DNA of 63,918 nt, counting the filler, from Acidimicrobiia bacterium (GTDB lineage: Bacteria > Actinomycetota > Acidimicrobiia > Spongiisociales > CAZKJJ01): assembly GCA_046759765.1 (NCBI GenBank). It is 7 parts of 7 records of this genome, joined end to end, with 100 filler letters (N's around TTAATTAATTAA, not from the genome) between each part and the next. Parts side by side here need not be neighbours in the genome. Positions count along the whole stretch, not along the records: positions 18,796 to 28,062 come from JBHICV010000097.1; 6 more parts are not named here. The stretch is one strand, 5' to 3'. The notes under the pieces are model-generated. The model ran no database searches. It saw only the letters and a program-made list of their open reading frames with translations, and was not told the origin of the DNA. The position numbers were made by a program, and so were the translations under genes. This document shows, piece after piece, positions 10,270 to 62,740 of this stretch; position 1 is the first letter of the stretch, and every line of letters starts with the position of its first letter.

Positions 10270-10325
10270 GCGCGCGTTTCTGTCAATCGCAATGTCGCCA
10301 GGCGGTATTCAGATTGACAGAAAAC

Positions 10326-11231: not shown

Positions 11232-11309
11232 GACTCCTCCGTGGACGCTCGGTATTGTGCCACGCCCATGATGCTGGGGGACATCCGCCAAGCAGAGCCC
11301 TGGACGTTT

Positions 11310-11393: not shown

Positions 11394-11458
11394 CGTCGCA
11401 AGCCTGTCCGTCGTTCCGCATGAACCGACGTCAAGGCCACGAGTAGCCTACGGCCGGA

Positions 11459-12511: not shown

Positions 12512-12562
12512 GAGCTCTGACGGCTGCTTCGGTTCGGTACACTCGTGATCGGTAGGTGATCA

Positions 12563-13420: not shown

Positions 13421-13429
13421 GAGGGAGTC

Positions 13430-15081: not shown

Positions 15082-15554
15082 GGGTAGGTCAAGGCTATGA
15101 CGCCCATTCCTTCGGGGGAACACCTCCGGTTGTCCTGGCCGGGATCACTGTTGACTCGGAACGAGGCGTTATAGCCACCTCCGACGGTGATGTAGTCGCC
15201 CACGCGGTAACGGATGCTGTCTTAGGTGCCGGGGCGCTGGGTGACCTTGGCGAGTGGTTTCCGTCAGACGACCCGGCCTCGGAGGGAGCCGACAGCATGG
15301 CCATCCTCCGTCTCGCTTGGGAGGAAGTTCGGCAAGCAGGCTTCGCCGTTTCCTCGCTCGATGTGACGGTGGTCGCGGAGACCGTGCGGGTGGCGCCTCA
15401 CCGGAGCGCGATGCGGAAAGCGCTAGCGGAGGCCTTGGAGTTGCCTGCGGCGGCGGTGTCGGTGAAAGCGACCTCGACGGACGGGCTGGGCTTCGTGGGC
15501 CGCGACGAGGGAATAGCCGCCCTGGCCGTAGCCGTCCTGGAGGAAACCTCTTAA
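15078..15554 (+). CDS. ispF: 2-C-methyl-D-erythritol 2,4-cyclodiphosphate synthase
   Basis: RVGQGYDAH, SDGDVVAHAVTDAVLGA, VSVKATS. Confidence 0.95.
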   Translation: MRVGQGYDAHSFGGTPPVVLAGITVDSERGVIATSDGDVVAHAVTDAVLGAGALGDLGEWFPSDDPASEGADSMAILRLAWEEVRQAGFAVSSLDVTVVAETVRVAPHRSAMRKALAEALELPAAAVSVKATSTDGLGFVGRDEGIAALAVAVLEETS

Positions 15555-15590
15555 GGCGAGGCTCGCGGGCCGCCACTTACAATCGCCCCG

Positions 15591-16991
15591 ATGCGCGTTT
15601 TCAACACCCTGGGTCGCCGGCTCCAGACGTTGGAGCCACGCGAGGAGGGCAAGATCTCGATGTACGTCTGCGGTGCGACTGTGCAATCGGAGCCCCATCT
15701 TGGCCACGGTCGCTATGCGGTCGTATTCGATGTCGTCCGTCGTTACTTGGAATGGCAAGGATTCGAGGTCACCTACATCCGCAATATCACCGACGTCGAG
15801 GACAAGATCATCCAAGCGGCCCGCGAGCGCGGAGTGGACGTGTCGGATCTGGTGCCGGAGATGATCAGGCGCTGGGACGAGGCTTATAGCGCGCTGGGCG
15901 TAATGCCGCCGACGGTCGAGCCAAAAGCCACCGATCACATCGACGGGATGATCGCCCTGATCTCCGACCTGATCGAGCGGGACTTGGCCTATCAGGCCAA
16001 CGGGGATGTGTACTTCGCGGTGCGTGAGTTCGAGCCTTACGGGCGTCTATCCGGCCAGAGTCTCGACGACCTCATCTCCGGAGCGCGCGTCGAGCCGGGC
16101 GAGCACAAGCGCGATCCCTTGGACTTCGCGCTCTGGAAGGCGGCTAAGCCAGGTGAGCCGCAGTGGGATTCACCCTGGGGCCAGGGCCGTCCCGGTTGGC
16201 ACATCGAATGCTCAGCGATGTCGCTCCACTATCTCGGCGAGGGTTTCGATATCCATGGCGGTGGCTCCGACCTCATCTTCCCGCACCACGAGAACGAGAT
16301 TGCGCAAGCTGAGGGCGCCGGGTCCCGGTTCGCCCGGTACTGGCTCCACAACGGGCTGCTTTCGCTGTCGGGGGAGAAGATGGCCAAGTCCACGGGCGTC
16401 CTCATCGATCTGCAGACGGCATTGCATCGGTACCCCGCCATGGGAATCAGGCTGTTCTATCTGCGAGCCCATTATCGGACTCCGCTCGAGTTCTCGGAGG
16501 CGCAGCTGGAGGATGCCGTCGCCGCGTATCAGCGGCTGTGGGCGTTTCGGCGTCGTGTGGGTGACGAGCTGTCCGCGGATTCGGACACCGAGGCGCTGGA
16601 GCGCTTCCGCGCGGCGATGAACGACGACTTCAATACTCCCGAAGCTCTGAGCGTCTTGTTCGATGTAGTCCGCGAAGGAAACCGGTCTCTCGACGCCGGC
16701 CAGGATGCAGATGCGTGGGCGGCAACGTTTGACGAGGTCTCCGGAGTCCTCGGACTCGAACCGCCGATCGGGAGAATCGAGGACATCGAGGACCAGCTCA
16801 ACGAGCTCGCTGATGAGTTCGGAATTGCGTCCGCGGATCCCGAGACCGTGGTCGAGGGACTGCTGACCAGACGTGAGGCGGCTCGCGACGAGGCTCGCTT
16901 CGAGGAGTCGGACGAGCTAAGAAGTCGGCTCGAGAGCCTTGGCATCGCGGTCGAAGACACCCCAGATGGCCCCCGCTGGCATCGGCGATAG
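15591..16991 (+). CDS. cysS: Cysteine--tRNA ligase
   Basis: [32 protein letters not shown]. Confidence 0.97.
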
Positions 16992-17694
16992 GGTCGAGGG
17001 GCTGCACGCAGTTCGAGCCGCCGTGGCTGCCGGACGGGTGACGCACCTCTTTGTGTTGGAGGCGGTGGCGAAGAAGGAGACCGAGCTTCTGCAGGCGGTC
17101 CAGGCACGCGAGGGCGTAGTCGACGTGCTTGACGATCTCGCCGGTATCGCCGAGACGTCCGCTCCGCAGGGAGTGGTTGCGCGAGCTCGTCCGATCCCAA
17201 CCGTAGAACTGAGGGCTCTAGTAAAGGATCGCCCTGCCCTCGTGGTCCTCGATCATCTCGAGGATGTGGGAAACGTGGGAGCAATCGCCCGTACAGCAAC
17301 GGCCGCTGGCATGACTGGCATGGTGGTCGCCTCGCGCCGAGCGGCGCCCTTGGGACCGGGTGTCTTTAAGGCTTCAGCTGGCGCGCTCGAGTCCTTGCCC
17401 GTGGCGACCTTGTCGTCGGTGGCCGATGCAGTTGTGGAGCTGCGCGACGTAGGCATCTGGACAGTGGGTCTGGAGGCACGTGCCGAGGCGTCGATCTTTG
17501 GGCTGGAGCTGCTGGCCGAGCCGGTGGCGCTGATCATCGGAGCCGAGGGGAGCGGGCTCGCCCGGCTGGTGCGAGAGCGCGTCGACGTACTGGCACGGGT
17601 CCCCATGGCGACCGAGACCGAAAGCCTCAACGCCTCGGTGGCAGCGGCCATTGCTATGTACGAGGTGCTTCGGGTCCGGAGCGAACTCGACTAA
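16966..17694 (+). CDS. rlmB: 23S rRNA 2'-O-methyltransferase (TrmH/RlmB family)
   Basis: LDHLEDVGNVGAIAR, GAEGSG, ESLNASVAA; follows cysS. Confidence 0.88.
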   Translation: MAPAGIGDRVEGLHAVRAAVAAGRVTHLFVLEAVAKKETELLQAVQAREGVVDVLDDLAGIAETSAPQGVVARARPIPTVELRALVKDRPALVVLDHLEDVGNVGAIARTATAAGMTGMVVASRRAAPLGPGVFKASAGALESLPVATLSSVADAVVELRDVGIWTVGLEARAEASIFGLELLAEPVALIIGAEGSGLARLVRERVDVLARVPMATETESLNASVAAAIAMYEVLRVRSELD

Positions 17695-17956
17695 TCAGTT
17701 CCTCGTTCAGGGTCCGGCGCCCTAAGTTGTTATTGATCGCCGGGTCAGCTCAAAAGCAAAATCGTCAATTTGGGAAAAGCCACGGCGCGTAGGTTGCTGA
17801 CCCCGATGAAACCGGTTCCATGGGTATTGCCACCGGGCACGGCAGGCTTCCCATCAGTCCGAACAGATCGGTGAATTGCTGGTGACTCTGGAAGAGATGC
17901 TCGCGGAGTCCGCGTAAGGAGAGTTCAATGCCGACTGAGATACCCTCTGGTCAAAG

Positions 17957-18029
17957 GCCGGGTTAGCTCAGTTGGTAGAGCACTGCTCTTGTAAAGCAGA
18001 TGTCGCCGGTTCGAGTCCGGCACCCGGCT
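17957..18029 (+). tRNA. tRNA-Thr(TGT)
   Basis: Acceptor GCCGGGT/ACCCGGC, D-arm AGCTCAGTTGGTAGAGC, anticodon arm CTGCT-CTTGTAA-AGCAG, GGTTCGAGTCC. Confidence 0.97.
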
Positions 18030-18055
18030 CTGGATCTACCTGGGGTTTTGCCCGC

Positions 18056-18595
18056 TTAGCTGGCGGCTCCACCAGTTCCTGTCCACATTTTGTCCACACG
18101 CGACCGCTGCCAGACGTCATCGAGAGCGTCAGCGGCGGCCTCGTCGAGACCGTCGTACAGGTGTCCATAGACGTCGAGAGTGGTCTTGATGGACGTGTGG
18201 CCCAGCCGCTCCTGGATCACCTTCGGGTGCTGACCGTTGGCGATCAGCATCGCGGCATGGGAGTGGCGATGGTCATGGAACCTGACCCCATGCGGGGCAG
18301 GCGGTCTCCAAACTCGTCGGTAGAAGTTTGAGCGACGAGGCGGTCGGCCCTCTGCGCTCGAGAAGACGGAGGCGCTTGGAAAGCGCTTGATGTGGAAGGC
18401 CAGCTCGTCGACCAGGAACGCTGGCAGTTTGATAGTTCGCCGCGACGACTTTGTCTTGAGGATCGGGCTTAAGGTCAGCTCCCCCTTGACCTCTGTGAGT
18501 TGGTTGACAACTCGGAGCTGGCGATGAAGCAGGTTCAGATTGTCGACCGTTAGCCCGGTCACCTCCCCAAATCGGAGCCCCGTGTAGCCGGCGCC
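18056..18595 (-). pseudogene. Tyrosine integrase, catalytic domain only (N-terminus lost)
   Basis: YTGLRFGE, KTKSSRR, FHDHRHSHA, RLGHTSIKTTLDVYGH; directly downstream of tRNA-Thr; similarity stops at ~18595. Confidence 0.85.
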
Positions 18596-18597
18596 GA

Positions 18598-18625
18598 ATG
18601 CTCCATATCGGCACGTATCGAGCGG
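18598..18625 (+). repeat. Degenerate 28-bp dif-like site
   Basis: ATGCTCCATAT-CGGCAC-GTATCGAGCGG. Confidence 0.6.
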
Positions 18626-18634
18626 TCGCTTCAA

Positions 18635-18649
18635 CCCGCCCATATGTGC
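18635..18649 (+). repeat. Half of dif-like site abutting IS end
   Basis: CCCGCCCATAT-GTGC, then IS terminal TG. Confidence 0.7.
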
Positions 18650-18695
18650 TGCGGTCTCAGGGGGTCATTGCAACGTTTCGGCGAGTTTCTCTGAG
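18650..18695 (-). mobile_element. IS30-family right end (contig breaks inside the element)
   Basis: IR TGCGGTCTCAGGGGGTCATTGCAACG resembles IS30-type IRs; minus strand reads SEKLAETLQ* like an IS30 transposase C-terminus. Confidence 0.75.
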
Positions 18696-18795
18696 NNNNN
18701 NNNNNNNNNNNNNNNNNNNNNNNNNNNNNNNNNNNNNNNTTAATTAATTAANNNNNNNNNNNNNNNNNNNNNNNNNNNNNNNNNNNNNNNNNNNN
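18696..18795. other. Artificial contig linker
   Basis: N/TTAATTAATTAA/N. Confidence 0.99.
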
Positions 18796-19291
18796 TGATC
18801 GACCACCGGACGACCGGTGTCAGCCATGAGACGCCTTCTCGATCGGCCCACGGCCGCACTAGATCGGCCACCACCGAGGCAACTGCGCCGGCTACCAAAA
18901 TGACGATCGCTGCCACGAACACGAGTGGCAGATACGCGATCAGCTCTCTCAGCAGCGCGGTCAGTTCACCGATGTCCAGAGTCTCCGCAGCCAGTAGCAG
19001 CGTGATCAGGACCGCGATCCAGTAGACCAAAAGCGCCAGCAGCCCGGAGACGGTGTAGCCCGCGTCGGTCAAGGTCTCTCCCATACCGGCGCGTTCGAGC
19101 AGCTTGTCCAGACCGATCGCCTTGAAAATCCTCTCGAACACGCGTCGTAGGAATCTGGCGATCAACCAGCCGACAAGCAGGATGATTAGCGCACCGACCA
19201 ACTTCGGCGTGACCTCGACAATGGCCTCCCAGGCGTCGTCTAGACCCTGTTGGACCCCGTCGAAGAAGCCCTCCTGAGCAAGGAGCAGCAT
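18796..19291 (-). CDS. Conserved TM-helix protein (CmpX/mechanosensitive-channel-associated; 3'-truncated)
   Basis: PKLVGALIILLVGWLIARFL and LIAYLPLVFVAAIVILV repeats. Confidence 0.75.
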
Positions 19292-19350
19292 GCAAACCCC
19301 CTTCGTGGTTTCCCCTTAGACCGTACTCCGTCCTTTAGGGTTTCTCCGGC

Positions 19351-19457
19351 TTCTTGTGACGTTTCACGACCACATAGGTAGTCAGGAGTCACACAAACGA
19401 GGTGATTCTGTTCTCGTGGCGTTTCACGACCGCATAGGTAGCTAGGCGTCACAAGAA
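19351..19457. repeat. Two 43-bp direct repeats (60-bp period) bounded by an 11-bp inverted repeat
   Basis: 19351-19393 and 19411-19453 near-identical; ends TTCTTGTGACG / CGTCACAAGAA. Confidence 0.85.
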
Positions 19458-19504
19458 CCGCTCGCTACCGCCTATAGGTCGCTGGGCGATAGCCTTCCGG
19501 GGAC

Positions 19505-20392
19505 ATGACGCCGGCCATCACCTATAGCCCCATACCCATCCTTGAGCTCGGGCCGCTCAATCTCTCACTGCACGGCGTGGCCGCCGCGGTGGGCTTCGCC
19601 TTAGGGTCGGTGTTAATGATCAGGGAGGTCAGGCGGCGGGGCTTCTCGGCGGAGCAGTATTGGTCTGTGCTGGCGTGGGCGCTGGTCGGGGCGATACTAG
19701 GAGCCCGGCTGTTAACCACCCCTGCGCACCTCGGCGATGCCGGCTTCGACCTGGCTGCCGCAATTAGCCCCAGCGGTTCATACTCGATTCTCGGAGGGTT
19801 CACGGGCGGAGTCCTGGGTGGTTGGCTGAGGGTCAGGATGCTCAAGCTCGACATCTGGGTATCGCTGGATATGGCCGCTCCCGGCATGGCACTCGGCACA
19901 GTGATCGGCCGGCTCGGCGATCTGGCAATCGTCGAGCACCTTGGTCGCAGCACCAACTTCTTCTTGGGTTTCACCATCCAGCCCGGCCACGACGTCGCTC
20001 CTCAGCATGACGTCTTGGAGTGCACTGTGGCCGAAGCCGTAGACGGAGTCTGCGGCACCTATCACCATACTGCTCTCTACGACATGCTCGGTGCAATCGC
20101 TCTGCTTATCTTTCTGCTTTGGATCAGACGAGCGTGGACCTCACTGCACTACGGCCAGGTCTTCGCTGTTTGGATGCTCTGGTACGGCACCCAGCGGTTC
20201 TTCATCGACTTTGCCCGCATCGGGGTCGCCAACGCGGACCGGATGGCGGGCGGCCTGACCTGGTCTCAGTGGGCGGCCCTGGCGGCAGCTCTAGGCGGGA
20301 TCGGTCTCTATTACTGGCTCCGGCGCAAGCCGCTTGTGTCGCCCGAAGAGGATCAAGCGCGGGGAGCCAAGGCGCTTACGGCCGACAGCTGA
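19505..20392 (+). CDS. lgt: Prolipoprotein diacylglyceryl transferase
   Basis: GAILGARL, SILGGF, IGRLGD, HHTALYD, RFFIDFAR. Confidence 0.85.
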   Translation: MTPAITYSPIPILELGPLNLSLHGVAAAVGFALGSVLMIREVRRRGFSAEQYWSVLAWALVGAILGARLLTTPAHLGDAGFDLAAAISPSGSYSILGGFTGGVLGGWLRVRMLKLDIWVSLDMAAPGMALGTVIGRLGDLAIVEHLGRSTNFFLGFTIQPGHDVAPQHDVLECTVAEAVDGVCGTYHHTALYDMLGAIALLIFLLWIRRAWTSLHYGQVFAVWMLWYGTQRFFIDFARIGVANADRMAGGLTWSQWAALAAALGGIGLYYWLRRKPLVSPEEDQARGAKALTADS

Positions 20393-20410
20393 AACTGATA
20401 AGTTCGGCCG

Positions 20411-21451
20411 ATGGACACGGCGCCGATCCGCTCCGAGGAGCGCTTCGACGAGTCCCGGGTCGCTGATTACCTCCGCCACAGCCTTCCCGACCTCGTCGGC
20501 AAGCACGAGATCAGCTTCGAGCAGTTTCCGGGAGGGCACGCCAACCTGACCTACCTCGCCCGGGCCGGCGACGTCGAACTGGTACTTCGGAGGCCACCGC
20601 TCGGGCCCGTGGCACCGAAGAGCCACGACATGGTCCGGGAGCACAAGGTCCTGTCGCGACTGCACCAGGCCTTCCCGGAAGCTCCCCGCGCTCTACTTCT
20701 CTGCACCGACGAGTCGATCATGGGCAAGCCCTTCTTCGTAATGGACCGCCACCGGGGCTTCGTGATCCGGGAGTCGTGGCCCGAGGGCCTAGCCGACACG
20801 TCCGCAGTGCGGAGGCAGCTCGCCGACACCTTCATCGGCGCTCTGATCCGTCTCCATCAAGTTGACTACGAGGCGCTCGAGCTCTCCGATCTGGGGCACC
20901 CGGACGGCTTCGTCGAAAGACAGGTAGCGGGCTGGACGAGCCGATGGGACCGCGCCAAGACCCGTGACCTCGAGGACATGAATGCCCTTAGTAGCAAGCT
21001 GTCGTCCAATCTGCCGGCGCCGCCCGCGGCGACCCTGCTCCACAACGACTTCAAGCTTGACAATGCCATGGTGGACGAGACGGGAAACGTCGTCGCAATC
21101 TTCGATTGGGATATGGCCACGCTGGGCGATCCCTTGATCGATCTGGCCACGGCCCTGGCCTATTGGTCAGAGCCAGACGATCCTCCCGAGCGCATCTTTG
21201 GTCCGACACCCATGCATCAGGGAGGCTTTCCGTCGCGGGCGGAGTTCCTGGATCGATACTCCGAAGGCACCGGCTTCGATCTGGGGTCACTTGCCTGGTA
21301 CGAGGCGTTCGCGTTCTACAAGGTGGCTGTGATCTGTGAGCAGATCTATGCGAGGTTCAAGGCCGGTCAGACCGGGGACGAGCGCTTTGAATCCTTTGGC
21401 GAAAAGACTGAACGCCTGGCAGCCGCCGGCCTAGAGCTTGCGAACTCTTAG
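20411..21451 (+). CDS. Phosphotransferase (APH/ACAD10-N-like) family protein
   Basis: QFPGGHANLTY, LVLRRPP, HDMVREH, LHNDFKLDN, IFDWDMATLGDP. Confidence 0.9.
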   Translation: MDTAPIRSEERFDESRVADYLRHSLPDLVGKHEISFEQFPGGHANLTYLARAGDVELVLRRPPLGPVAPKSHDMVREHKVLSRLHQAFPEAPRALLLCTDESIMGKPFFVMDRHRGFVIRESWPEGLADTSAVRRQLADTFIGALIRLHQVDYEALELSDLGHPDGFVERQVAGWTSRWDRAKTRDLEDMNALSSKLSSNLPAPPAATLLHNDFKLDNAMVDETGNVVAIFDWDMATLGDPLIDLATALAYWSEPDDPPERIFGPTPMHQGGFPSRAEFLDRYSEGTGFDLGSLAWYEAFAFYKVAVICEQIYARFKAGQTGDERFESFGEKTERLAAAGLELANS

Positions 21452-22186
21452 ACAGGAGGGCGGCTGAGGTCGCTCGGCTCGGATGATGGCGGCGTGCATC
21501 CCGTCCTCGACCTGCTGAGTTAGCTGAACAGAGACGTTCAACAAGCCCGTGTCTCTGAGCGACTCGCAATACTCACTGATAGACAGTGCACCGGCGGTGC
21601 ATTCCGCCCATGAGCCCCGCTCGGCTCGATCGGCCGGGGTCAGATGGTCCTCCGCCACTACGTCGCTGATGGCCAGCCGACCTCCCGGTCTAAGCACCCG
21701 GGCGATCTCTGAGAAGACTTTGGGCTTCTCCGGTGAGAGGTTGATGACGCAGTTCGAGATCACAACGTCGACGGTCGCGTCCGGCAGCGGAATCTGCTCG
21801 ATGTTGCCTTCGAGGAATTCGACGTTGTCGACCCCAGCCTCCGCGGCGTTCCTGCGAGCCAGGTCCAGCATCTCTCGGGTCATGTCCAGTCCATAGGCCT
21901 TGCCGGACAGTCCCACTCGCCGGGCCGAGAGCAGCACGTCGATGCCGCCCCCGGAGCCGAGATCCAGCACGGTCTCTCCCGGGGAGAGCTCGGCCATGAG
22001 AACCGGATTGCCGCAGCCGAGACTGGCCGAAACCGCAGCTTCCGGAAGCTCCGCCAGGTCGCCATCGTCGTAGCGGGTGGAGCCGAAGCAATCGTCGTCG
22101 GTGCAACACAAGCTGCCGGTCTTCACCTCCTGGGCGGCGCGGGCGTAGCGGTCCCGCACGTCTTCTCTGATCTGATGAGTGGTCAT
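21431..22186 (-). CDS. arsM: Arsenite methyltransferase
   Basis: SLGCGNP, VLDLGSGGGID, ISNCVINL, WAECTAGA; coupled to ArsR gene. Confidence 0.88.
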   Translation of the reverse strand: MTTHQIREDVRDRYARAAQEVKTGSLCCTDDDCFGSTRYDDGDLAELPEAAVSASLGCGNPVLMAELSPGETVLDLGSGGGIDVLLSARRVGLSGKAYGLDMTREMLDLARRNAAEAGVDNVEFLEGNIEQIPLPDATVDVVISNCVINLSPEKPKVFSEIARVLRPGGRLAISDVVAEDHLTPADRAERGSWAECTAGALSISEYCESLRDTGLLNVSVQLTQQVEDGMHAAIIRAERPQPPSCLRVRKL

Positions 22187-22512
22187 GCCCCTATCACCTC
22201 CACGAACTCGGATGGGACGGCTCCGCCCACGATGAGCTGGGCCGCCGAGGGAAAACACTCGAAGCAGAGGTCGTTGAACCGGTAGTAGCTGGCCGTGCCG
22301 ATGTGGTCTACGAGCACGAATCGCACCTCGCCGAGCTTCTTGAGGTGATGCGAAACAGTCGACTGGCCGACGTCGACGGCCTCAGTTATCTCCCCGACGG
22401 TGAGCGGGCGGCCGGAGATGGCGAGCAGGTGAAGGATGAGTATCCGCGTGGGATCGGAGATGGCCTGAAACCAGTCGGCCCACTCCTCTGCGTCGCCGCG
22501 CTGAACATTCAT
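22183..22512 (-). CDS. ArsR/SmtB family transcriptional regulator
   Basis: FQAISDPTRILIL, VGQSTVSHHLKKL, C-terminal CFEC. Confidence 0.9.
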   Translation of the reverse strand: MNVQRGDAEEWADWFQAISDPTRILILHLLAISGRPLTVGEITEAVDVGQSTVSHHLKKLGEVRFVLVDHIGTASYYRFNDLCFECFPSAAQLIVGGAVPSEFVEVIGA

Positions 22513-22550
22513 CGATAATCGACGATAATCGATTAATAGCGATACGTCAA
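22513..22550 (-). promoter_or_regulatory. Probable sigma70-type promoter/operator of arsR
   Basis: TTGACG (22550-22545), 17-bp spacer, TATCGT (22527-22522); overlapping ATCGAT-type repeats; near-leaderless start. Confidence 0.6.
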
Positions 22551-22559
22551 CAGCAGAAA

Positions 22560-22889
22560 TGAGCTCGACCCAACCCGCTCGCGATCACCCGCAACGACTC
22601 GCCGCGAGCCACACTCCGAGAGATCTCCTCTCGCTCATGCAGCCGACAAATGCCGCAGCGACCTTCTCCGCGGTGCCGGACGCACCCCACCAGCATCCTC
22701 GAACAGCCTCCGAATCGACGACGGGTTCCTCCCCAGCCGACGAGCTATCGATCGGGTCGGCTCGCCGGCCTCCCGTCGCTCCCAAACCTCCCAAACCTCG
22801 GCCTCTGTGAACCTTCTCGACACGCCACACCTCCCAACGAGACGACACAACTCTCGCCAAAGGTGTTGCGTTCACGCCTTGAGGCGGCA
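22560..22889 (-). mobile_element. IS30-family left-end remnant with frameshifted, truncated transposase (GTG at 22823)
   Basis: IR TGCCGCCTCAAGGCGTGAACGCAACA (22889-22864); VSRRFTEAEV...IARRLGRNPSSI...GGVRPAPRRRSLRHLS then, after a frameshift, EREEISRSVARGESLRVIASGLGRA. Confidence 0.85.
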
Positions 22890-22904
22890 GCACATATGCG
22901 CTAT
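22890..22904 (+). repeat. Right half of dif-like site abutting IS30 end
   Basis: GCAC-ATATGCGCTAT. Confidence 0.85.
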
Positions 22905-22917
22905 CTGCGGCGAACGG

Positions 22918-23604
22918 CTAAGGAGTTGGGCTCTCGGCTGTCAGCATGTAGAAGCGATCCCCCCGATGGTCCATCGAGGTCCGCCAGCCGCGGTCTTGGA
23001 AGATCGCAGCGACGCTGGCGGGATCGTGACTCACTTTGACAAGCCGATACCTCCGGCCGTCACTCACCGTCCGGTGAGACACCCAGGGATCCTCATCATC
23101 CGCACCAACGGAAAGGCCCGGATCATCGAACTGGTGCTCATCTACCAAGACAACCGAACCGCCAGGCCGGCAAAGGCTATCTACCTGGTCAACGAACCCC
23201 GGTATCAGATCAGGGGGGACATGGGACAGCCAAAAAGACGAGAAGACAACGTCATGACGACGGTCAGACTTCCACTCGAAGAGATCGGCCACCACGTACG
23301 AGACGTTTTCGCCTCCAAGTCGCTGACGGGCCAACTCCAGAGCTTCTCCTGAGGCGTCCACCAGTGTCACCGAGTTGGCTGTGTCCCTCAGCAGCTCGGT
23401 CCAGAGACCGGTGCCAGCTGCTAGATCGACGACATCACCTGTCAGGGTCTTTCCACCAACCTTGGCCCTCAGCTGCTGCCACTCAGCGGCGTCGGGATCG
23501 GATAGATCTGGCACCATGCCTGCGTCGTACTCGGGCGCTCTGGCCTCGAAGTACGCAATCTGCTCCTGCAGCAACCGTTCCTGCCGATCCCCAGCCTCGC
23601 CCAT
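22918..23604 (-). CDS. Class I SAM-dependent methyltransferase
   Basis: QIAYFEARAPEYD, VVDLAAGTGLWT, DVVFSSFWLSHVP. Confidence 0.9.
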   Translation of the reverse strand: MGEAGDRQERLLQEQIAYFEARAPEYDAGMVPDLSDPDAAEWQQLRAKVGGKTLTGDVVDLAAGTGLWTELLRDTANSVTLVDASGEALELARQRLGGENVSYVVADLFEWKSDRRHDVVFSSFWLSHVPPDLIPGFVDQVDSLCRPGGSVVLVDEHQFDDPGLSVGADDEDPWVSHRTVSDGRRYRLVKVSHDPASVAAIFQDRGWRTSMDHRGDRFYMLTAESPTP

Positions 23605-23655
23605 GAGAGCAGGCTAGATAAGCCGCCACCAGCCGAGCAGAGGGCCACTCACCCA

Positions 23656-23683
23656 TCCGCCCATATCGGCACATATGCGCTAC
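23656..23683 (+). repeat. 28-bp dif-like site (intact)
   Basis: TCCGCCCATAT-CGGCAC-ATATGCGCTAC. Confidence 0.9.
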
Positions 23684-23729
23684 CGGAGCCGGGCTGGGAT
23701 CGGGTCTGGGGGTCGGCGCGTCTGGGCGG

Positions 23730-24323
23730 TTATGTAAGCGCGGCGCAGACTTCTGACCAGTCCGCGACCCGGAGGGCGTTAGGTGGCAGTGGCTGAGTCT
23801 GGTTCCAAGGGTACCGACCGAAGAGCAGCGCGCGGAGGCCCTCCTCCGCCGCTCCAGTGAGGTGGGCGACTTGGTCGTCAACCAAGACTCCGGCCCTGAT
23901 CTGTCGGCAGACGCTCGCCTTGGTCACGGGCCTTTCTCCTCGCTCGGAGTGTCCGACCCCGAGAATCACTGGATCGAATACCCCTGCGAAGTACTTCTCG
24001 ATCCACGCTTCCGTAACAGCGGCGAAGTCCGGATCTCTGGCGCTCACCACCGCCAGCTGGTACTTCGCTTGTAGACCCTCCAGGCATTCAACGGCCCCAG
24101 GGATGGGTTTAAGGCCGAGAACGTCTACCTCCCGGAAGAACAGTGCCAACCGCTCGATCGCCTCTTCCTTAGTGCCGCCCCACGCCTCGAATAAGTACTT
24201 CGCCGTAGCAAGATCCTCAGGGGTGAGATCAGTCCCGTATCGACGGTTATGCCACTCGAAGAAGGGCGTGACGAAGTCAAACAACACATCATCGAGATCG
24301 AAAACTACGGTGATCCGCTCCAT
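23730..24323 (-). CDS. HAD superfamily 5'(3')-nucleotidase-like protein
   Basis: VVFDLDDVL, VVSAR, KASVC, VLVDD, PWN motifs. Confidence 0.85.
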   Translation of the reverse strand: MERITVVFDLDDVLFDFVTPFFEWHNRRYGTDLTPEDLATAKYLFEAWGGTKEEAIERLALFFREVDVLGLKPIPGAVECLEGLQAKYQLAVVSARDPDFAAVTEAWIEKYFAGVFDPVILGVGHSERGERPVTKASVCRQIRAGVLVDDQVAHLTGAAEEGLRALLFGRYPWNQTQPLPPNALRVADWSEVCAALT

Positions 24324-24520
24324 ACCTGGCACGGGTTTCCTTCGCCGTGGACGAACCTTCCAAGAGGAACCGGCTCGGGTTGGTTATACCCACCAACTCG
24401 ATGCCGCCACCCACTCAGATCACTGCAACCGCACCAAATATGGGTGATATCACTCGGCGGCAACAGTTCACGATACCGGCACATCGCAGGCGGCCAGGCG
24501 AGAACCTCGGGTGAGTGCAG

Positions 24521-24548
24521 ACAGCGCATATCGGCACATATGCGCTAC
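24521..24548 (+). repeat. 28-bp dif-like site (intact; 9-bp perfect inverted arms)
   Basis: ACAGCGCATAT-CGGCAC-ATATGCGCTAC. Confidence 0.9.
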
Positions 24549-24660
24549 TGATCTATGCGCAGCGGGGGGAGTGGCCAGCGCTATTGCATCTCTGAGGGCG
24601 CAGGTGCATGCTGGTCAGATCTGTCGAGTGGCGCCTCTGTCACGGTGAGGTGAGGAGCCG

Positions 24661-25119
24661 ATGCCTGACCTGTCCGTTCATATCGACCGCCCGCTGGAAG
24701 ATGTGTTCGCCTTCGTTATGGATATTCCCAGAACGCCTCTATGGCGGCCGCGGATTGTGGAAGCGGAATGGCTGGACAGCGGCGAAACCCGAGTAGGACG
24801 CCGGATAAATCTCGTCAGCAAGGTGATGGGTATCAGGTCCAGGTTCGTGTTGGAGATCACCAGGTGGGAGCCACCGCGGCGTTTCGCCTACGGCGTGGCT
24901 GAAGGCCGAGATCTGGGGCAGGTCGAGGACCGTTGGGACCCGGAGAACGGCGGTTGCCGGTTCACGATCGCGCTCGGGCAGGCCGCCCCGAACTTTCGTG
25001 GGGCCAAGTTGCTTATGCCATTGGGGAAGATGGTCTTGTTGAAAGAGAACTACGAGGACCTGGAACGGCTCAAGCGGATCATGGAGAGCGGAGCCGACCG
25101 GGATCAAAAAGCCGTGTGA
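24661..25119 (+). CDS. SRPBCC family protein
   Basis: IDRPLEDVFAFVMD...ITRWEPPRRFAY...DLERLKRIME; GAGGAG RBS. Confidence 0.85.
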   Translation: MPDLSVHIDRPLEDVFAFVMDIPRTPLWRPRIVEAEWLDSGETRVGRRINLVSKVMGIRSRFVLEITRWEPPRRFAYGVAEGRDLGQVEDRWDPENGGCRFTIALGQAAPNFRGAKLLMPLGKMVLLKENYEDLERLKRIMESGADRDQKAV

Positions 25120-25144
25120 GGGCCTTCGCGCCTAAACACTGAGC

Positions 25145-25172
25145 ACGGCCCGTATCGGTACCTATGAGCTAG
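25145..25172 (+). repeat. 28-bp dif-like site (degenerate)
   Basis: ACGGCCCGTAT-CGGTAC-CTATGAGCTAG. Confidence 0.75.
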
Positions 25173-25229
25173 GCGATCTGTCTAGAGCCAACCGCGGCTA
25201 GTTGATCATTCACGTAATGTCGCGGTCCG

Positions 25230-25697
25230 GTGATCCGCGAGCAGCCCCAGTTCGGCATCGTGATCCACCGTCCTGTTCAGGACGTTTATGACTTCGTGAT
25301 GGATCTGCCGAAGACGCCGCTTTGGCGACCGCGAATGTCGGACGTGGCTTGGGTGGGCGAGGGCGAGCCGGGCATCGGAAGCAGATTCCGAGTGACGGCG
25401 AGAGCACTCGGTTACAGCTTCAGATTCAGTTTCGAGGTCACAGAATGGGAACCGCCCGTCTGGTTTGCTTACCGTCAGGACCGAGGGCCGATCACGATGC
25501 ACTCGGGCATGCAATGGGTACCTGAGAACGACGGATGCCGGTTCCTCATCGGCGGAAACCCACAAGCCGGGAACTTCCTCGTCAAGCTCGCAGAGCCGCT
25601 TCTGTGGGCGACACTCATCAAGCAGAACGCCGCGGACCTCGTTCGACTTAAAGAAATCATGGAAAGCGGAGCCGCCAAGAATCACGAAGCCCGCTGA
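25230..25697 (+). CDS. SRPBCC family protein (paralog of upstream gene)
   Basis: IHRPVQDVYDFVMDLPKTPLWRPR...VTEWEPP...DLVRLKEIMESGA. Confidence 0.85.
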   Translation: MIREQPQFGIVIHRPVQDVYDFVMDLPKTPLWRPRMSDVAWVGEGEPGIGSRFRVTARALGYSFRFSFEVTEWEPPVWFAYRQDRGPITMHSGMQWVPENDGCRFLIGGNPQAGNFLVKLAEPLLWATLIKQNAADLVRLKEIMESGAAKNHEAR

Positions 25698-25721
25698 GAA
25701 CCTGCGCTCAGGAGTCTGCCA

Positions 25722-25752
25722 ACCGCCCATATCGGCTGCACATATGCGCTAG
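25722..25752 (+). repeat. dif-like site with 9-bp expanded spacer
   Basis: ACCGCCCATAT-CGGC-T-GCAC-ATATGCGCTAG. Confidence 0.9.
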
Positions 25753-25808
25753 CCACTCGGTTCAGCTGACAGTGTGGTGGCTTCTATGGAGACTATCGGT
25801 AAGCACAG

Positions 25809-25976
25809 TCACGGCAACCCGATTACGGCGCCGACGAGCATCAAGGCGAACCCCCCGCCGACAAACGCGGCTGTGCTCTGTCGGGATGTGATGCCCAGAG
25901 GCCGAATAGGGCGGGTCAGGCCCACGATGCCAACGATGAATCCGACCAGTCCCAACGGGATCAGCACTACGCCCAT
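25809..25976 (-). CDS. 55-aa two-TM small membrane protein
   Basis: MGVVLIPLGLVGFIVGIVGL...FALMLVGAVIGLP; AAGGGAG RBS; fills module between two sites. Confidence 0.6.
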   Translation of the reverse strand: MGVVLIPLGLVGFIVGIVGLTRPIRPLGITSRQSTAAFVGGGFALMLVGAVIGLP

Positions 25977-26093
25977 CGGCTCTCCCTTCGGAGCCACGCT
26001 AGCTGGAGGGTCCACGCCCGGAGCCGGTAGACGCTCGCTAGCCGAGAGTGTTCGCCAGTGGAAACACAAGCGGGTGGTCGATCCTCCTTCTGA

Positions 26094-26125
26094 GCCGCCG
26101 ATATCGGCATCCACATATGCGCCGT
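26094..26125 (+). repeat. dif-like site with 10-bp expanded spacer
   Basis: GCCGCCGATAT-CGGCATCCAC-ATATGCGCCGT. Confidence 0.8.
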
Positions 26126-26130
26126 CCAAG

Positions 26131-26158
26131 GCCGCTCATATTGCCGAGTATGGGAGGG
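26131..26158 (-). repeat. Inverted variant dif-like site
   Basis: Minus strand CCCTCCCATAC-TCGGCA-ATATGAGCGGC. Confidence 0.55.
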
Positions 26159-26294
26159 CTGCTCACTGGTTGCAAAGCGTTGCTATGAGCGGCCAACCCC
26201 AAACTTTGGGGTTCTGAGCTTGTTCGGATCGGAATCACCTCATAGCAGGCTGGATAGGGTTGAAGCGAAGGCATCGCTGTGACCTGTGCCACCT

Positions 26295-27341
26295 ATGGAA
26301 GGGGGAGGGTTGCGCTTGCTGGGAGGCTGGCTTCTTTCCGTTGCTCTGGTAGTGGCGGCCTGTGGCACAGCAGCTGGCCCACCTTCTTCTGAGGCGATCA
26401 GCTGGTCTCGGGTCCCCCACGACGAGGCGATATTCGGCGGAGCGGGTGTCCAGCGGATGGCGAGCGTGACCGCCGGGGGGCCGGGTCTGGTGGCAGTCGG
26501 ATCGGTGGGGCCGGTCGACGATGCCGATGCAGCGGTGTGGACTTCTCTTGATGGGCTCAACTGGTCCCGGGTCACCCACGACGAGGCGGCTTTGGGCGGA
26601 GAGCGTAGCCAGCGGATGACGAGCGTGACGGTGGGAGGCCCGGGCCTGGTGGCGGTCGGATGGGACCGGTCCGGCGGCGATCAGGATGCTGCGGTATGGA
26701 CTTCTCCTGATGGGATCGCCTGGTTTCGGATCCCCCACGACGAGGCGGCTTTGGGCGGAGAGGGTAGCCAGCGGTTGGCGAGCGTGACTTCCGGGGGCCC
26801 GGGCCTGGTGGCAGTCGGATCGGACCGGTCGGGCGGCGATGTCGACGCGGCGGTGTGGACCTCACCTGTTGGGATCGTATGGTCCCGCGTCCCTCACAGC
26901 GAGGCCGTTTTCGGAGGAGAGGACAGCCAGGATATGAGAGGGGTAACCGCCGGAGGCGAGGAGCTGGTGGCAGTCGGATCGGACCGGTCGGGCGGCGATC
27001 AGGATGCTGCGGTGTGGACTTCTCCGGATGGGATCACCTGGTCCCGGGTCCCCCACGACGAGGCGGTCTTCGGCGGAGAGGGTTTCGAGTTCATAGTGAG
27101 CGTGACTTCCGGGGGCCCGGGTCTGGTGGCAGTCGGACGGGACGGGCTCGGCGATGCCGATGCTGCGGTGTGGACCTCTCCCGATGGGCTCACCTGGTCC
27201 CGTGTCCCCCACGACGAGGCGGTCTTCGGCGGAGTGGGTCGTCATGGGATGCGCAGCGTGACCGCCGGGGGCCCAGGTCTGGTGGCAGTTGGAGAGGAGG
27301 GCAGTCGTGGTGCGGTATGGGTGATGGCTAGGGAAGATTGA
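26295..27341 (+). CDS. Lipoprotein with ~60-aa repeats (Asp-box/beta-propeller-like); exact start uncertain
   Basis: Lipobox VVAAC; about five repeats of WSRVPHDEAVFGG...SVTAGGPGLVAVG...DAAVWTSPDG. Confidence 0.85.
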   Translation: MEGGGLRLLGGWLLSVALVVAACGTAAGPPSSEAISWSRVPHDEAIFGGAGVQRMASVTAGGPGLVAVGSVGPVDDADAAVWTSLDGLNWSRVTHDEAALGGERSQRMTSVTVGGPGLVAVGWDRSGGDQDAAVWTSPDGIAWFRIPHDEAALGGEGSQRLASVTSGGPGLVAVGSDRSGGDVDAAVWTSPVGIVWSRVPHSEAVFGGEDSQDMRGVTAGGEELVAVGSDRSGGDQDAAVWTSPDGITWSRVPHDEAVFGGEGFEFIVSVTSGGPGLVAVGRDGLGDADAAVWTSPDGLTWSRVPHDEAVFGGVGRHGMRSVTAGGPGLVAVGEEGSRGAVWVMARED

Positions 27342-27464
27342 CAAGGGCGTATTTACTGGCGGACCCCCGCACCAGTCGACTGGCCGAGCCGGGGTCACAC
27401 TATGGGGAAGTGCGGGCTCGAACACTCATACATGCGCTCACAATCAGGCCCAGCGCGGTCACCA

Positions 27465-27495
27465 TCCGCCCATATCGGCAGCACATATGCGCTAG
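27465..27495 (+). repeat. dif-like site with 9-bp expanded spacer
   Basis: TCCGCCCATAT-CGGC-A-GCAC-ATATGCGCTAG. Confidence 0.9.
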
Positions 27496-27511
27496 GTCGG
27501 GAGCCTGTTAC

Positions 27512-27664
27512 TCAACCTCCGGGCGCTGTCTCGACCCGCACCCCGGCTGCGATCATCTTCTCCACTATTTGAGCGATGAGTTCCTCGGCGTCAAGGAAAG
27601 CGAGGCCGTATTCGCCGTCAGGCTCAAAGGGGCAAATAACCACTCCTCGGCGACTTCTCGCCAC
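27512..27664 (-). CDS. 50-aa hypothetical protein
   Basis: Hand-translated VARSRRGVVICPFEPDGEYGLAFLDAEELIAQIVEKMIAAGVRVETAPGG; AGGAGG upstream. Confidence 0.4.
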   Translation of the reverse strand: MARSRRGVVICPFEPDGEYGLAFLDAEELIAQIVEKMIAAGVRVETAPGG

Positions 27665-27704
27665 TCTCGGTCGACCTCCTAGTTACCGGGCCTGTCTGCT
27701 CAGA

Positions 27705-27917
<213 letters not shown>

Positions 27918-27942
27918 TCAGTGATCGGTTCGGGCGCTAGTA

Positions 27943-27970
27943 GCCGCTCATGCTGCCGTTAATGGGCGGG
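27943..27970 (-). repeat. Inverted variant dif-like site
   Basis: Minus strand CCCGCCCATTA-ACGGCA-GCATGAGCGGC; 22/28 identical to 26131-26158. Confidence 0.55.
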
Positions 27971-28062
27971 TGAATCGTAAGGTCCACTGGTGACGTTGAG
28001 CCTCATAAGTCGGTTTCGATTCCGAGTTCGGTGAAGATGCGGCGTCGCTGTTCCGTGTAGTC

Positions 28063-28162
28063 NNNNNNNNNNNNNNNNNNNNNNNNNNNNNNNNNNNNNN
28101 NNNNNNTTAATTAATTAANNNNNNNNNNNNNNNNNNNNNNNNNNNNNNNNNNNNNNNNNNNN
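28063..28162. other. Artificial contig linker
   Basis: N/TTAATTAATTAA/N. Confidence 0.99.
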
Positions 28163-28515
28163 ATCGCCGGGTCGTACTGCGTGTCCTTGATGACCAGCTC
28201 GACCTGACGCCCATCGGCTATGCCACCTTCTGCGTTGACCTTGTCCCAGAAGGCAATACTGGCGTTGACGATCGGCGCCACGAGCACGTCAAAGACACCC
28301 GACGACTGGTCGGCGAGCAGGCCGACCTTGATCGTGGTGTCGTCCACGCCGATGTCCGTTAGCAGCTCTGCCGCCGGTGGCTCGGTGGCGGGCGGCTGCG
28401 TCGCCGGCGGCTGCGTGGCAGGGGGCTGCGTCGTCGTTTCTGCCTCCCCGCCGCAGGCGGCGGCGACTACCGCTAGGCCGATCAAAGCAGGCAGCCACTT
28501 ACGTTTGGATCTCAC
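28163..28515 (-). CDS. ABC transporter substrate-binding lipoprotein, LivJ-like (3'-truncated)
   Basis: VAAACGG lipobox, GVDDTTIKVG, VNAEGGI..GRQVELVIKDTQYDP; AAGGAGG RBS. Confidence 0.85.
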
Positions 28516-28597
28516 TTGAATTCCTCCTTGCTCACCTGTCACATCAGGTGCGAACGCTCGAAGCCTAACCACGAGCCTGTCGCACATGCATGCCCGA

Positions 28598-29827
28598 TCA
28601 ATACGAGAACGGCCATGCCTTGAAGTAGTTGCGGATCCTGATCCAGATCCCAAACAAACCCAGGGGCTCGAAGATCAGGAAGAGGATGATGAAGAGCCCG
28701 TATAGCGCAATGTTGAGCTGGAAGAGGCTTAGCCCCGACCCTCCCGGCTGTAGCGAGATCAGACCGAAGTCGTCGCCCTGGGTGATGAGGAGATCGGCGA
28801 TCGGTTTGAGCGGTCCTCCCTCGTTCACCTGACCGACCAAGAACTCGGTGAGCTCTTCGACGACCTTCGGCAGCCCGATCAAGAAGGCGCTCCCGAGGAT
28901 CGCTCCGGTGGTCAAGCTGGCACCTCCGATGAGGATGATGGCGATCATCTGGACTGACAAGAAGAGGTTCCAGAACTCCGGGATGATGATCCTGAAGAAA
29001 GAGGCCAGCAGTGCCCCGGCGACTCCGGCAAAGAAGGAAGACATGGCGAACGCTACGGCCTTGTGCCTTGCCTCCGAAACGCCCATGATCTCGGCGGCGA
29101 TGTCTCGGTCTCGAATGGCCATGAAGGCTCGGCCTAGCCGCGTTCGGGAAAGATTCTTGGCCACGAGAGCGAAGAGGATGAGGAGCAGCAGGATCGGATA
29201 GAAGGCCTTGGCCCGAGCGCTGAGCTCGATTCCGAGCCAGGTGCCCTCGGTCGAAAAGTCGATGAGCGCCTCCTCCTCCTTCCAGACTCGAACTGCCAGG
29301 TCGGGCCAGTCCCGCCCCAGCCCCGGTCCTCCCGTAATGAATCCCAAGGTCCGGAAGAAGTGCTCGCCGATGAAGACGAGGCCCAGCGTCACGAAAGCGA
29401 GGTAGAGGCCACGGACCCGAAGAGCGGCTGGAGCAATGATCGCCCCGATAAGAGCCGGAACTAGCCCGGCGGCGGGGAGCCAGATCCAGATCGGCAATCC
29501 CAGGCCCCACAGGCTGTCGGTTCCCTGGCCTCCCAGAATGACGGCGGTGTAGGCCCCGACTCCCATGAAGAAGGCGTGACCGAGCGAAACCTGTCCGGCG
29601 AGACCCGTCAGCAGGGTGAGACCTAGCGCCCCGATACAGAAGATCATGGCTCTGACCAGCACGTTCAACCATTCGTCCTCGCCCAGAAACGACAACCCCG
29701 GAATCACCTGGAGGGGGATCAGCAACATGAGGACCAGGAGTGCGGCGAGTGCGAGCTTCTGCGTCCCCGTGGGGAAGATGGCCTGATCGGCTTCGTAGCT
29801 CGTGTAGAGGAGCGGCCGACCTCTCAT
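28598..29827 (-). CDS. Branched-chain amino acid-type ABC permease (LivM-like)
   Basis: GLAGQVSLGHAFFMGVGAY, LRVRGLYLAFVTL, GRAFMAIRDRDIAA. Confidence 0.92.
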   Translation of the reverse strand: MRGRPLLYTSYEADQAIFPTGTQKLALAALLVLMLLIPLQVIPGLSFLGEDEWLNVLVRAMIFCIGALGLTLLTGLAGQVSLGHAFFMGVGAYTAVILGGQGTDSLWGLGLPIWIWLPAAGLVPALIGAIIAPAALRVRGLYLAFVTLGLVFIGEHFFRTLGFITGGPGLGRDWPDLAVRVWKEEEALIDFSTEGTWLGIELSARAKAFYPILLLLILFALVAKNLSRTRLGRAFMAIRDRDIAAEIMGVSEARHKAVAFAMSSFFAGVAGALLASFFRIIIPEFWNLFLSVQMIAIILIGGASLTTGAILGSAFLIGLPKVVEELTEFLVGQVNEGGPLKPIADLLITQGDDFGLISLQPGGSGLSLFQLNIALYGLFIILFLIFEPLGLFGIWIRIRNYFKAWPFSY

Positions 29828-32685: not shown

Positions 32686-32765
32686 CGTCTACCTCCTAGG
32701 TAGCTGCAAGGACCAGAGCCGTACCCTATAGCGTCGTCTAGGTCCACGCCGGGGATCAGGGGTTC

Positions 32766-33200: not shown

Positions 33201-33213
33201 ACAATGACAGTCT

Positions 33214-62671: not shown

Positions 62672-62708
62672 ACCACCCATATCGGCTGCCGCCTCAAGGA
62701 TGAACGCA
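62672..62708 (+). mobile_element. Left half of dif-like site fused to a solo IS30-family end
   Basis: ACCACCCATAT-CGGC then TGCCGCCTCAAGGATGAACGCA, near-identical to the IR at 22889-22864. Confidence 0.8.
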
Positions 62709-62740
62709 GGACACGCAACCCCACTGGGCCAGTCGCACTC

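Follow-up and report, generated by a model that had tools for sequence, protein, structure and literature searches.

The locus described here raises the question of why the ends of an insertion sequence (IS) lie exactly at the centre of a short palindromic site. The window, by which the whole analysed stretch of 63,918 bases is meant, comes from the draft assembly GCA_046759765.1 of an Acidimicrobiia bacterium and contains three tips of an IS30-family element, each abutting one half of a 28-bp site that resembles dif. The site has the form cc-GCCCATAT / CGGCAC / ATATGCGC-ta, that is, two inverted arms of 11 nucleotides (nt) around a 6-nt centre (11-6-11). The findings point with good confidence to target-specific parasitism, in which an IS30 clade with an element of about 1.22 kb inserts into the centre of this dif-like site.

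The window has a G+C content of about 63% and consists of seven contigs of about 9.2 kb each (1–9309, 9410–18695, 18796–28062, 28163–37357, 37458–46516, 46617–55596 and 55697–63918). The linkers between them (9310–9409, 18696–18795, 28063–28162, 37358–37457, 46517–46616 and 55597–55696) have the form N44-TTAATTAATTAA-N44. Since the contigs are joined by such linkers, the order of features on separate contigs and the distance between them are undefined.

Insertion Sequence Tips at Split Sites

The three tips end at positions 18650, 22889 and 62687, on contigs 2, 3 and 7, respectively, of the one draft assembly (Table 1). The window reads ...CCTTGAGGCGGCA followed by GCACATATGCGCTA at 22877–22889, ACCCATATCGGC followed by TGCCGCCTCAAGG at 62675–62699 and GCCCATATGTGC followed by TGCGGTCTCAGGG at 18638–18662. 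An earlier, sequence-only reading of the window had placed IS tips against half-sites at these three positions, and its strings were recovered exactly as given, each 4 nt from CATAT. The pentamer occupies positions −9 to −5 of all three tips, leaving exactly 4 nt between arm and tip. With a background of 62 in 127,818 window positions for CATAW at that offset (4.9e-4; range 4.9e-4 to 6.3e-4), the chance of finding it at three of three window tips is about 1e-10.

Tips were placed by a fixed register from the conserved GCAAC motif of related inverted repeats (IRs). A 27-nt IR pattern derived from related elements, with a maximum score of 35, was compared with 20 shuffles. The tips at 22889 and 18650 scored 34/35 and 33/35, the best shuffle reaching 29, and no further tip across the window, its 14 contig ends included, scored above the shuffle maximum. 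The same scan, which returned two tips only, found no IR-IR junction in the window. The tip at 62687 escapes the ungapped score because of a 1-nt indel; it aligns with the left type of repeat (IRL) over about 23 nt and then diverges. The exact 13-mer TGCCGCCTCAAGG has two copies in the window, at 22889 (minus strand) and 62687 (plus strand). Allowing up to three mismatches in the 13-nt tip was uninformative, as the window then gave 32 matches where 30.8 were expected; information is carried by the exact or near-exact copies alone.

Different parts of the element remain at the three positions. Read on the minus strand from 22889 to 22562, the contig 3 copy comprises the IRL, a short leader, 62 codons, a frameshift, about 30 further codons and a break. 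Its similarity to the related loci L064, L001 and L002, described below, extends down to 22562 at both the DNA and the translated level, and at its inner end it runs directly into sequence upstream of an ArsR-type gene (22183–22512, HTH_5 match). The contig 2 copy, 18650–18695, matches the right ends of L001 (94.9% over 39 nt) and L002 (91.5% over 47 nt). Contig 2 ends 46 bp inside this element, as is expected of a multi-copy repeat, which breaks assembly. On contig 7, window positions 62673–62708 match L064 726–762 at 84%. No transposase or IS body was found behind 62687; the next feature is the 3′ end of an open reading frame (ORF) with a SnoaL_2 match (62741–63772, minus strand). The half-site 62675–62686 lies upstream of a cyclase/NB-ARC/TPR gene (59968–62634, minus strand).

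The description of these positions as three independent loci is correct insofar as they lie on three separate contigs, but they belong to one assembly, one of them being a solo remnant (62687) and another a truncated and frameshifted copy (22889). Likewise, the end at 22889 is an IRL, as proposed, but that at 18650 is the right repeat (IRR) and not a left end, since it encodes SEKLAETLQ-stop.

Table 1. Positions of element remnants, split and intact sites and the recombinase fragment in the window.
Feature	Position	Strand	Basis or remark
IS30-family 5′ part, truncated and frameshifted	22562..22889	−	Homologues, translation, IRL match
IRL of that 5′ part	22863–22889	−	Identical over 23 nt to the L064 IRL
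Transposase codons 1–62	22638–22823	−	Three-frame translation
About 30 further codons past the frameshift	22562–22648	−	Three-frame translation
IRR, last 9 transposase codons and stop	18650..18695	−	SEKLAETLQ-stop; IR score 33/35
Solo IRL remnant of about 23 nt, 1-nt indel	62687..62709	+	Exact 13-mer, IRL alignment
Right half-site, GCAC + ATATGCGC + TA, abutting the IRL tip	22890..22903	+	First site of the contig 3 array
Left half-site, cccGCCCATAT + GTGC, abutting the IS tip	18632..18649	+	
Left half-site, ACCCATAT + CGGC	62675..62686	+	Intergenic
Intact 28-bp site, GCCCATAT CGGCAC ATATGCGC	23656..23683	+	
Intact 28-bp site, GCGCATAT CGGCAC ATATGCGC	24521..24548	+	
Degenerate 28-bp site, GCCCGTAT CGGTAC CTATGAGC	25145..25172	+	
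Site with 9-nt centre CGGC-T-GCAC	25722..25752	+	Centre 25733–25741
Site with 10-nt centre CGGCATCCAC	26094..26125	+	Centre 26105–26114
Site with 9-nt centre CGGC-A-GCAC	27465..27495	+	Centre 27476–27484
Tyrosine recombinase, N-terminally truncated, 195 amino acids, catalytic domain only	18056..18643	−	PF00589, E = 7.5e-16, profile 33–169 of 172

Identity and Relatives of the Element

The window copy contains only the N-terminal part of the transposase, about 95 codons. Its 62-amino-acid (aa) N-terminal piece matched 145 proteins at E ≤ 1e-3 among 322 candidates, and the 120 proteins listed are 77–92% identical to it. Those of full length among them have 378–381 aa (typically 379), carry an HTH_38 (PF13936) and an rve (PF00665) domain, and some are named IS30 family transposase. 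An alignment of 16 of the 120 listed proteins served as the query in a scan of 185,579 species-representative genomes, which gave at least 603 matching stretches, 598 of them encoding relatives; the best 80 loci were kept (L001–L080).

The full copies in L001 and L002 possess both the HTH_38 and the rve domain and measure 1218 bp from tip to tip. The IRs are about 27 nt long and keep one register in the 80 related loci, namely 7 nt, TCAA or TCAG, and GCAAC at position 21. A single transposase with a helix-turn-helix (HTH) and a DDE (rve) domain, terminal IRs of about 20–30 bp and a length of about 1.0–1.25 kb are features of the IS30 family, and these were found. Judged by the homologues and by the IR alignment with the 80 loci, the strings in the window are the termini of a transposase-coding IS30-family element, as the sequence-only reading had supposed.

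L001, L064 and L002 are the fetched loci nearest to the window fragment (67%, 62.5% and 59% identity over the 62-aa piece). A FastTree tree comprised 95 rows, namely one best match per locus for the 80 loci and 15 of the listed proteins; five loci carried one internal stop, written X. In this tree, L001, L064 and L002 form an 18-row group with the 15 proteins close to the window fragment (SH-like support 97). The sister of this group is L047, the flank of which is unrelated to the site. Identity of the transposase to the fetched Proteobacterial relatives is 52–57%. A plasmid collection added no clade member among the matches listed: at the protein level, the 25 matches listed were at most 57.6% identical, with 11 more records in the 60–80% band, and at the DNA level no record covered at least 80% of the L001 element, the matches listed being 65–68% identical.

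A 488-aa metagenomic protein, P0041, combines the first ~137 residues of this IS30-type transposase with a complete tyrosine recombinase and is a further truncated copy of the clade beside a recombinase gene. Its recombinase was considered as a counterpart of the recombinase fragment in the window and rejected, the two being 34% identical over 162 aa.

Target Choice of the Clade

Among the fetched loci (the best 80 of at least 603), only L001, L002 and L064 fall into the clade of the window element. With a slash marking the tip, the junction of L064 reads gcccGCCCATAA CCGG/TGCCGCCTCAAGG, those of L002 read acccGCCCATAA CGGC/GGTGG ... CCCCGCA/GC, where the contig ends, and those of L001 read agccGAACATAT TGCC/TGTG ... 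GACA/GGCA TTATGTTCgg. Junctions were counted when the tip scored at least 28/35 and at least 12 nt of flank were present. CATAW is found at positions −9 to −5 in all four fetched junctions of the clade, versus none of the 139 junctions from the other 77 loci. Together with the window, the arrangement arm-CATAW-NNNN/tip is present at seven of seven clade junctions (three in the window and four in L001, L002 and L064). Among the fetched loci, the target is confined to this one clade.

Nothing similar was found between the window and L001, L002 or L064 outside the IS parts and the sites, which makes the insertions independent. The IRL faces the left arm at 62687, L064, L002 and L001, the IRR faces the left arm at 18650, and the IRL faces the right arm at 22889; from these pairings, both insertion orientations occur. 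Arm and tip are separated by 4 nt of variable sequence (CGGC, GTGC, CCGG, TGCC), whereas the arms are conserved, which fits a transposase that reads the arms.

Symmetry of the target extends beyond the clade. Over 64 loci with 18 nt on each side, the left and right flanks showed a mean mirror symmetry of 7.16/16, versus 5.20 for shuffled partners, with a shuffled-partner maximum of 6.02 in 200 shuffles. Most other clades share a different palindrome, TGTCCGCTTT...AAAGCGGACA. As palindromic targets differ in a clade-specific manner, it can be argued that the transposase itself reads the arms.

In L015–L080, mostly from Pseudomonadota, the flanks take the form (A)TGTCCGCTTT-N/IS/N-AAAGCGGACA(T). 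C was present at −11 in 100 and G at −13 in 84 of 138 other-clade junctions.

Probable Centre Duplication and Proposed Mechanism

Both tips and flanks were available for 66 related loci: 34 have a 2-bp direct repeat, 16 a 3-bp repeat, 3 an inverted dinucleotide and 13 none. The 34 2-bp repeats are seen with the tips placed at the conserved IR register (TG/GG…CA/CC). The geometry of the clade's site agrees with this value, as the intact centre has 6 bp (CGGCAC) and each occupied half keeps 4 nt (4 + 4 − 6 = 2). No insertion in the window shows both junctions; combining left and right junctions from different copies, the structure is likely CG[GC]-IS-[GC]AC with a 2-bp duplication.

The following course of events is proposed. 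The element has a length of about 1.22 kb, encodes a 379-aa HTH + DDE (rve) transposase and ends in ~27-bp IRs that start with TG and finish with CA. Its preferred target would be a dif-like palindrome, with an 11-nt arm ending in CATAT or CATAA, a 6-nt centre and the inverted arm. The arms are probably recognised by the N-terminal HTH region of the transposase itself. This region has been implicated in hot-spot targeting by IS30. The transposase would cut at the IR tips and attack the target strands 2 bp apart, and repair would yield the 2-bp repeat. Insertion would thus take place at the middle of the 6-nt centre, each half retaining its arm together with 4 nt, and the central dinucleotide (GC in the usual CGGCAC) would be duplicated. 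As the target is nearly symmetric, the element could enter either way round, and its insertion would set the arms 1.2 kb apart and so destroy the site. The window would then hold three relics of such insertions, the 5′ part at 22562–22889, the right end at 18650–18695 and the solo IRL at 62687–62709. By analogy with IS30, copying-out of the element may yield a circle or dimer in which the IRs abut (copy-out-paste-in; PMC9333248).

The dif-like Site and Its Array

Contig 3 carries six intact sites at 23656–27495, all in one orientation and with single ORFs between them. Three have the long centres CGGCTGCAC, CGGCAGCAC and CGGCATCCAC, and the other three have 6-nt centres (CGGCAC twice, CGGTAC once). 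A strict site pattern found none in the 80 related loci. Looser arm patterns revealed intact sites at L001 411–432 and 1255–1276 and at L002 8105–8126 (other strand), all with CGGCAC. Nine empty sites are known in total (six in the window, two in L001 and one in L002), and six of the nine have the 6-nt centre CGGCAC or CGGTAC.

The proposed dif of Frankia alni is CACGCCGATAA TGCACA TTATGTCAAGT (PMC3025954). By our own count, the left arm agrees with the XerC arm of this reference, which may not represent the host's dif, at 7–9 of 11 positions, and the right arm of the occupied L001 site agrees with its XerD arm at 8 of 11. A true dif is expected as a single copy at the terminus; here, six intact copies are present within 4 kb, besides three split ones. 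The sites are dif-like, but they are not the dif. We infer that they are substrates of a Xer-type tyrosine recombinase.

The ORFs of the contig 3 array (22890–27495) encode a methyltransferase, an NT5C-type nucleotidase, two SRPBCC paralogues, a 351-aa protein with 53-aa repeats and proteins without assigned function. L001 411–3660 is laid out in the same way, its sites being at 411 and 1255 and the occupied one at about 2415, and L002 has a cyclase gene flanked by two inverted sites.

The site array may represent a cassette system. A bolder version, in which the 28-bp sites are attachment sites of an undescribed Xer-type-driven cassette system in Acidimicrobiia-like bacteria, the IS30 clade is its specialised parasite and regulator, and the 9–10-nt centres are scars of a lost element that can no longer recombine, is doubtful. 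Were the cassette interpretation true, the array would consist of single-gene modules divided by directly repeated dif-like sites, and insertion of the IS, by splitting a site, would freeze the neighbouring cassettes.

The long centres may be either scars of lost IS copies or mere variants. The forms CGGC-T-GCAC (25725) and CGGC-A-GCAC (27468) correspond to a duplicated GC with one terminal base of the IS added, the first or the last, and the strings CCCATATCGGCTGC and CGGCAGCACATATGCGCTA are common to these 9-nt sites and to the occupied junctions at 62675 and 22881. A deletion from CGGC in the left flank to CGGC in the right IS tip would give the form CGGC-A-GCAC. Copy-out by IS30 leaves the donor unaltered (PMC9333248), so excision of the IS30 type is unexpected. 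Over 34 nt, the two 9-nt sites share 94% identity and may therefore be copies of one variant rather than products of two events.

Evaluation of the Explanations

Several observations weigh against an IS30 clade that parasitises the centre of the dif-like site. The sample is small, with seven junctions from four assemblies, all of them metagenome bins, and L001 is a contig of 4.2 kb; the nearest relatives (85–92% identical proteins, mostly on 1–3-kb contigs) were compared as protein only. The window has no intact copy of the element, and 62687 is a 23-nt remnant only. Pfam returned no family for the 102-aa ORF 22585–22893 (minus strand), and the only NCBIfam match was a weak one of the 62-aa piece to IS21 (E = 0.058), the 33-aa piece having none; as these scans are nearly empty, the identity of the window copy rests on the homologues and the IRs. 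As regards the site, three of the nine intact copies have centres of 9–10 nt, which is odd for a Xer-type site. The common right arm agrees with the Frankia XerD arm at 4 of 11 positions (our own count, against a reference that may not be the host's), and by its sequence it looks more like a second, inverted XerC-type arm. No full recombinase gene is present beside the window sites, and none could be tied to the sites.

The duplication, too, is uneven among the relatives. L002 has GC on either side of the IS, with a right flank of only 2 nt, and its own intact site has the centre CGGCAC. L001 is the sole insertion with both flanks fully visible and shows CC on the left and GG on the right, i.e., an inverted repeat, both flanks reading arm-TGCC/tip towards the IS. 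Such a structure would arise from inversion between two oppositely oriented copies or from chimeric assembly across the repeat. The 2-bp GC duplication proposed in the sequence-only reading is therefore in keeping with the geometry and with the GC/GC of L002 (2 nt), but not with the CC/GG of L001.

Two other placements of the tips were considered. Extending the tips by one base (C-TG...CA-G) would turn the repeat of L001 into a GC duplication, but this placement was rejected because it conflicts with L002. Tips two bases shorter with a 3-bp duplication were rejected because they conflict with the 34 of 66 loci that have 2-bp repeats.

The choice of target could alternatively be guided by the host, the transposase being drawn to DNA that a site-bound tyrosine recombinase bends or synapses, or to a hairpin or cruciform of the palindrome, with the same insertion at the centre. 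This would suit the dif-like nature of the site, the existence of another IS family that hunts dif sites (PMC10132070) and the variable 4-nt spacer beside conserved arms, since the arms or their binder would set the position. However, other clades pick other palindromes with arms at other distances, as predicted by specificity borne by the transposase, and the choice of hot spots is described for IS30 as a property of the element (PMC9333248). Moreover, the occupied sites in L001, L002 and L064 have no linked recombinase gene, and guidance by the host is considered unlikely. The sequence-only reading had also offered the transposase as the enzyme that builds the array. On this explanation, it would make or spread the 28-bp sites, which would be relics of IS ends or IR-IR junctions. 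The IS tip (...CGGCA) does resemble the site centre (CGGCAC), and the 9-nt centres can be read as a duplicated GC with the first or last IS base; yet, apart from those few bases, the intact sites are free of IR sequence, the sequence expected of an IR-IR junction (...GGCGGCA-NN-TGCCGCC...) is unlike the arms, and IS-free sites are present in three assemblies. Besides, the arms resemble dif arms, the left one being XerC-like, and sister clades insert alike at unrelated palindromes, which makes this role of the transposase highly improbable.

Entry by site-specific recombination, as known for dif-integrating elements, would account for the location within a dif-like site, but it leaves two complete hybrid sites, whereas each junction here pairs a single arm with an IS tip that resembles no arm; these tips have the canonical form of IS30-type IRs, and the relatives make 2–3-bp duplications. 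We give such an entry hardly any credence. Chance, or an assembly artefact in which collapsed repeats join IS ends to sites, is conceivable in a draft assembly with one junction at a contig end. Given the odds calculated above for the window alone, the same type of junction in three other assemblies and the position of two window junctions in the interior of contigs, this explanation is practically negligible. Target-specific parasitism by the IS30 clade, which is the favoured one of the two alternatives formulated in the sequence-only reading (an IS that parasitises recombination sites), is thus regarded as very probable.

Other Features of the Window

The recombinase fragment 18056–18643 is the sole tyrosine recombinase in the window. 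It has weak XerD/XerC-type NCBIfam matches, far below the cut-offs, lies between tRNA-Thr (17957–18030) and the occupied half-site and is not part of the IS. A tRNA followed by a tyrosine recombinase is the usual layout of a tRNA-integrated island, and the region 17957–18643 has such a layout, cut off at the site/IS junction. Within the first codons of the truncated recombinase (...DTCRYGA...), at 18601–18616, there is a site-like string, CCATATCGGCAC, with TAT two bases on; its distance to the occupied half-site is 37 bp. The string may be the vestige of a second site, or the resemblance may be coincidental and favoured by the conserved RY codons.

Several repeats were noted elsewhere. In ORF 26286–27341, which has no Pfam match, six tandem copies of a 156–159-bp unit (53 aa) occupy 26356–27298. 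Thirteen repeat copies spaced by 15 bp (12627–12900) code for an N-terminal Lys/Ala-rich tail in a CarD-family protein, with an HC2/histone H1-like match. A palindromic-looking repeat of 48 nt forms a tandem pair (19351–19398 and 19411–19458) upstream of lgt, and contig 1 has a third, weaker copy (5232–5279). The SnoaL_2 ORF 62741–63772 (minus strand) is located downstream of a sigma-70 fragment.

Relation to Known Systems

IS30 inserts into near-palindromic hot spots with a 2-bp duplication (PMC9333248). The present element resembles IS30 of Escherichia coli in its DDE transposase with an N-terminal HTH, its terminal IRs and its palindromic target (PMC9333248), and its IRs align with those of the fetched IS30-type relatives. 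It differs in the hot spot, which is here a dif-like 11-6-11 site also found in cassette-like arrays. Judged by the flanks of the related loci, palindromic targets are a habit of the whole family.

IS1655 of Neisseria meningitidis and REP/BIME-specific elements such as IS1397 likewise insert with strong preference into the middle of short palindromic repeats. The targets of these elements are different, and IS1397 also belongs to another family; we know of no link of elements of this kind to recombination sites.

The Acinetobacter dif and pdif sites and dif modules have inverted 11-nt arms and a 6-nt spacer, and their copies flank single genes or small groups of genes (PMC10132070; PMC12907356); pdif sites are labelled C/D or D/C by orientation (PMC10132070). 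The window sites share with them the two inverted 11-nt arms around a 6-nt spacer and the presence of several copies flanking genes. In contrast to pdif sites, all six sites of the window array have one orientation, both arms appear XerC-like and three of nine spacers have 9–10 nt. The host here is an Acidimicrobiia-like metagenome bin, and its sites are putative recombination sites. The literature, covered as titles and starts of abstracts with most subscription journals outside, yielded no IS30-family element on dif-like sites and no arrays of such sites in Actinomycetota. The habit of targeting sites is known in such elements; the lineage and the target are new.

The closest parallel in choice of site is the ISAjo2/ISAba71 group of the IS1202 family, described as 'dif site hunters' (PMC10132070; bioRxiv 10.1101/2022.12.17.520857). 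These elements have about 1.5 kb and a TnsB-like transposase of 441–457 aa, and they insert 5 bp outside the XerC arm in a single orientation, with a 5-bp duplication and the site left intact (PMC10132070). Both groups have in common that the IS lies beside Xer-type sites bordering mobile gene modules and at dif-like sites of the chromosome. The present element departs from the hunters in transposase, position, orientation and probably duplication: it is of the IS30 type, has about 1.22 kb and 379 aa, lies inside the central 6 nt in both orientations and splits the site, with a probable duplication of 2 bp.

Elements that choose safe, repeated and often mobile landing sites reveal how transposases read DNA and are markers for the sites themselves. 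In the present case, they flag a conserved dif-like site in uncultured Acidimicrobiia-type genomes, arrayed between single genes, which may mark a cassette system, and the IR tip of the clade with the adjoining arm provides a short signature for finding such sites in metagenomes. After the IS1202 hunters (PMC10132070), the clade would add a second, unrelated transposase family converged on Xer-type sites, and it would do so with a different geometry, within the spacer, in both orientations and with destruction of the site.

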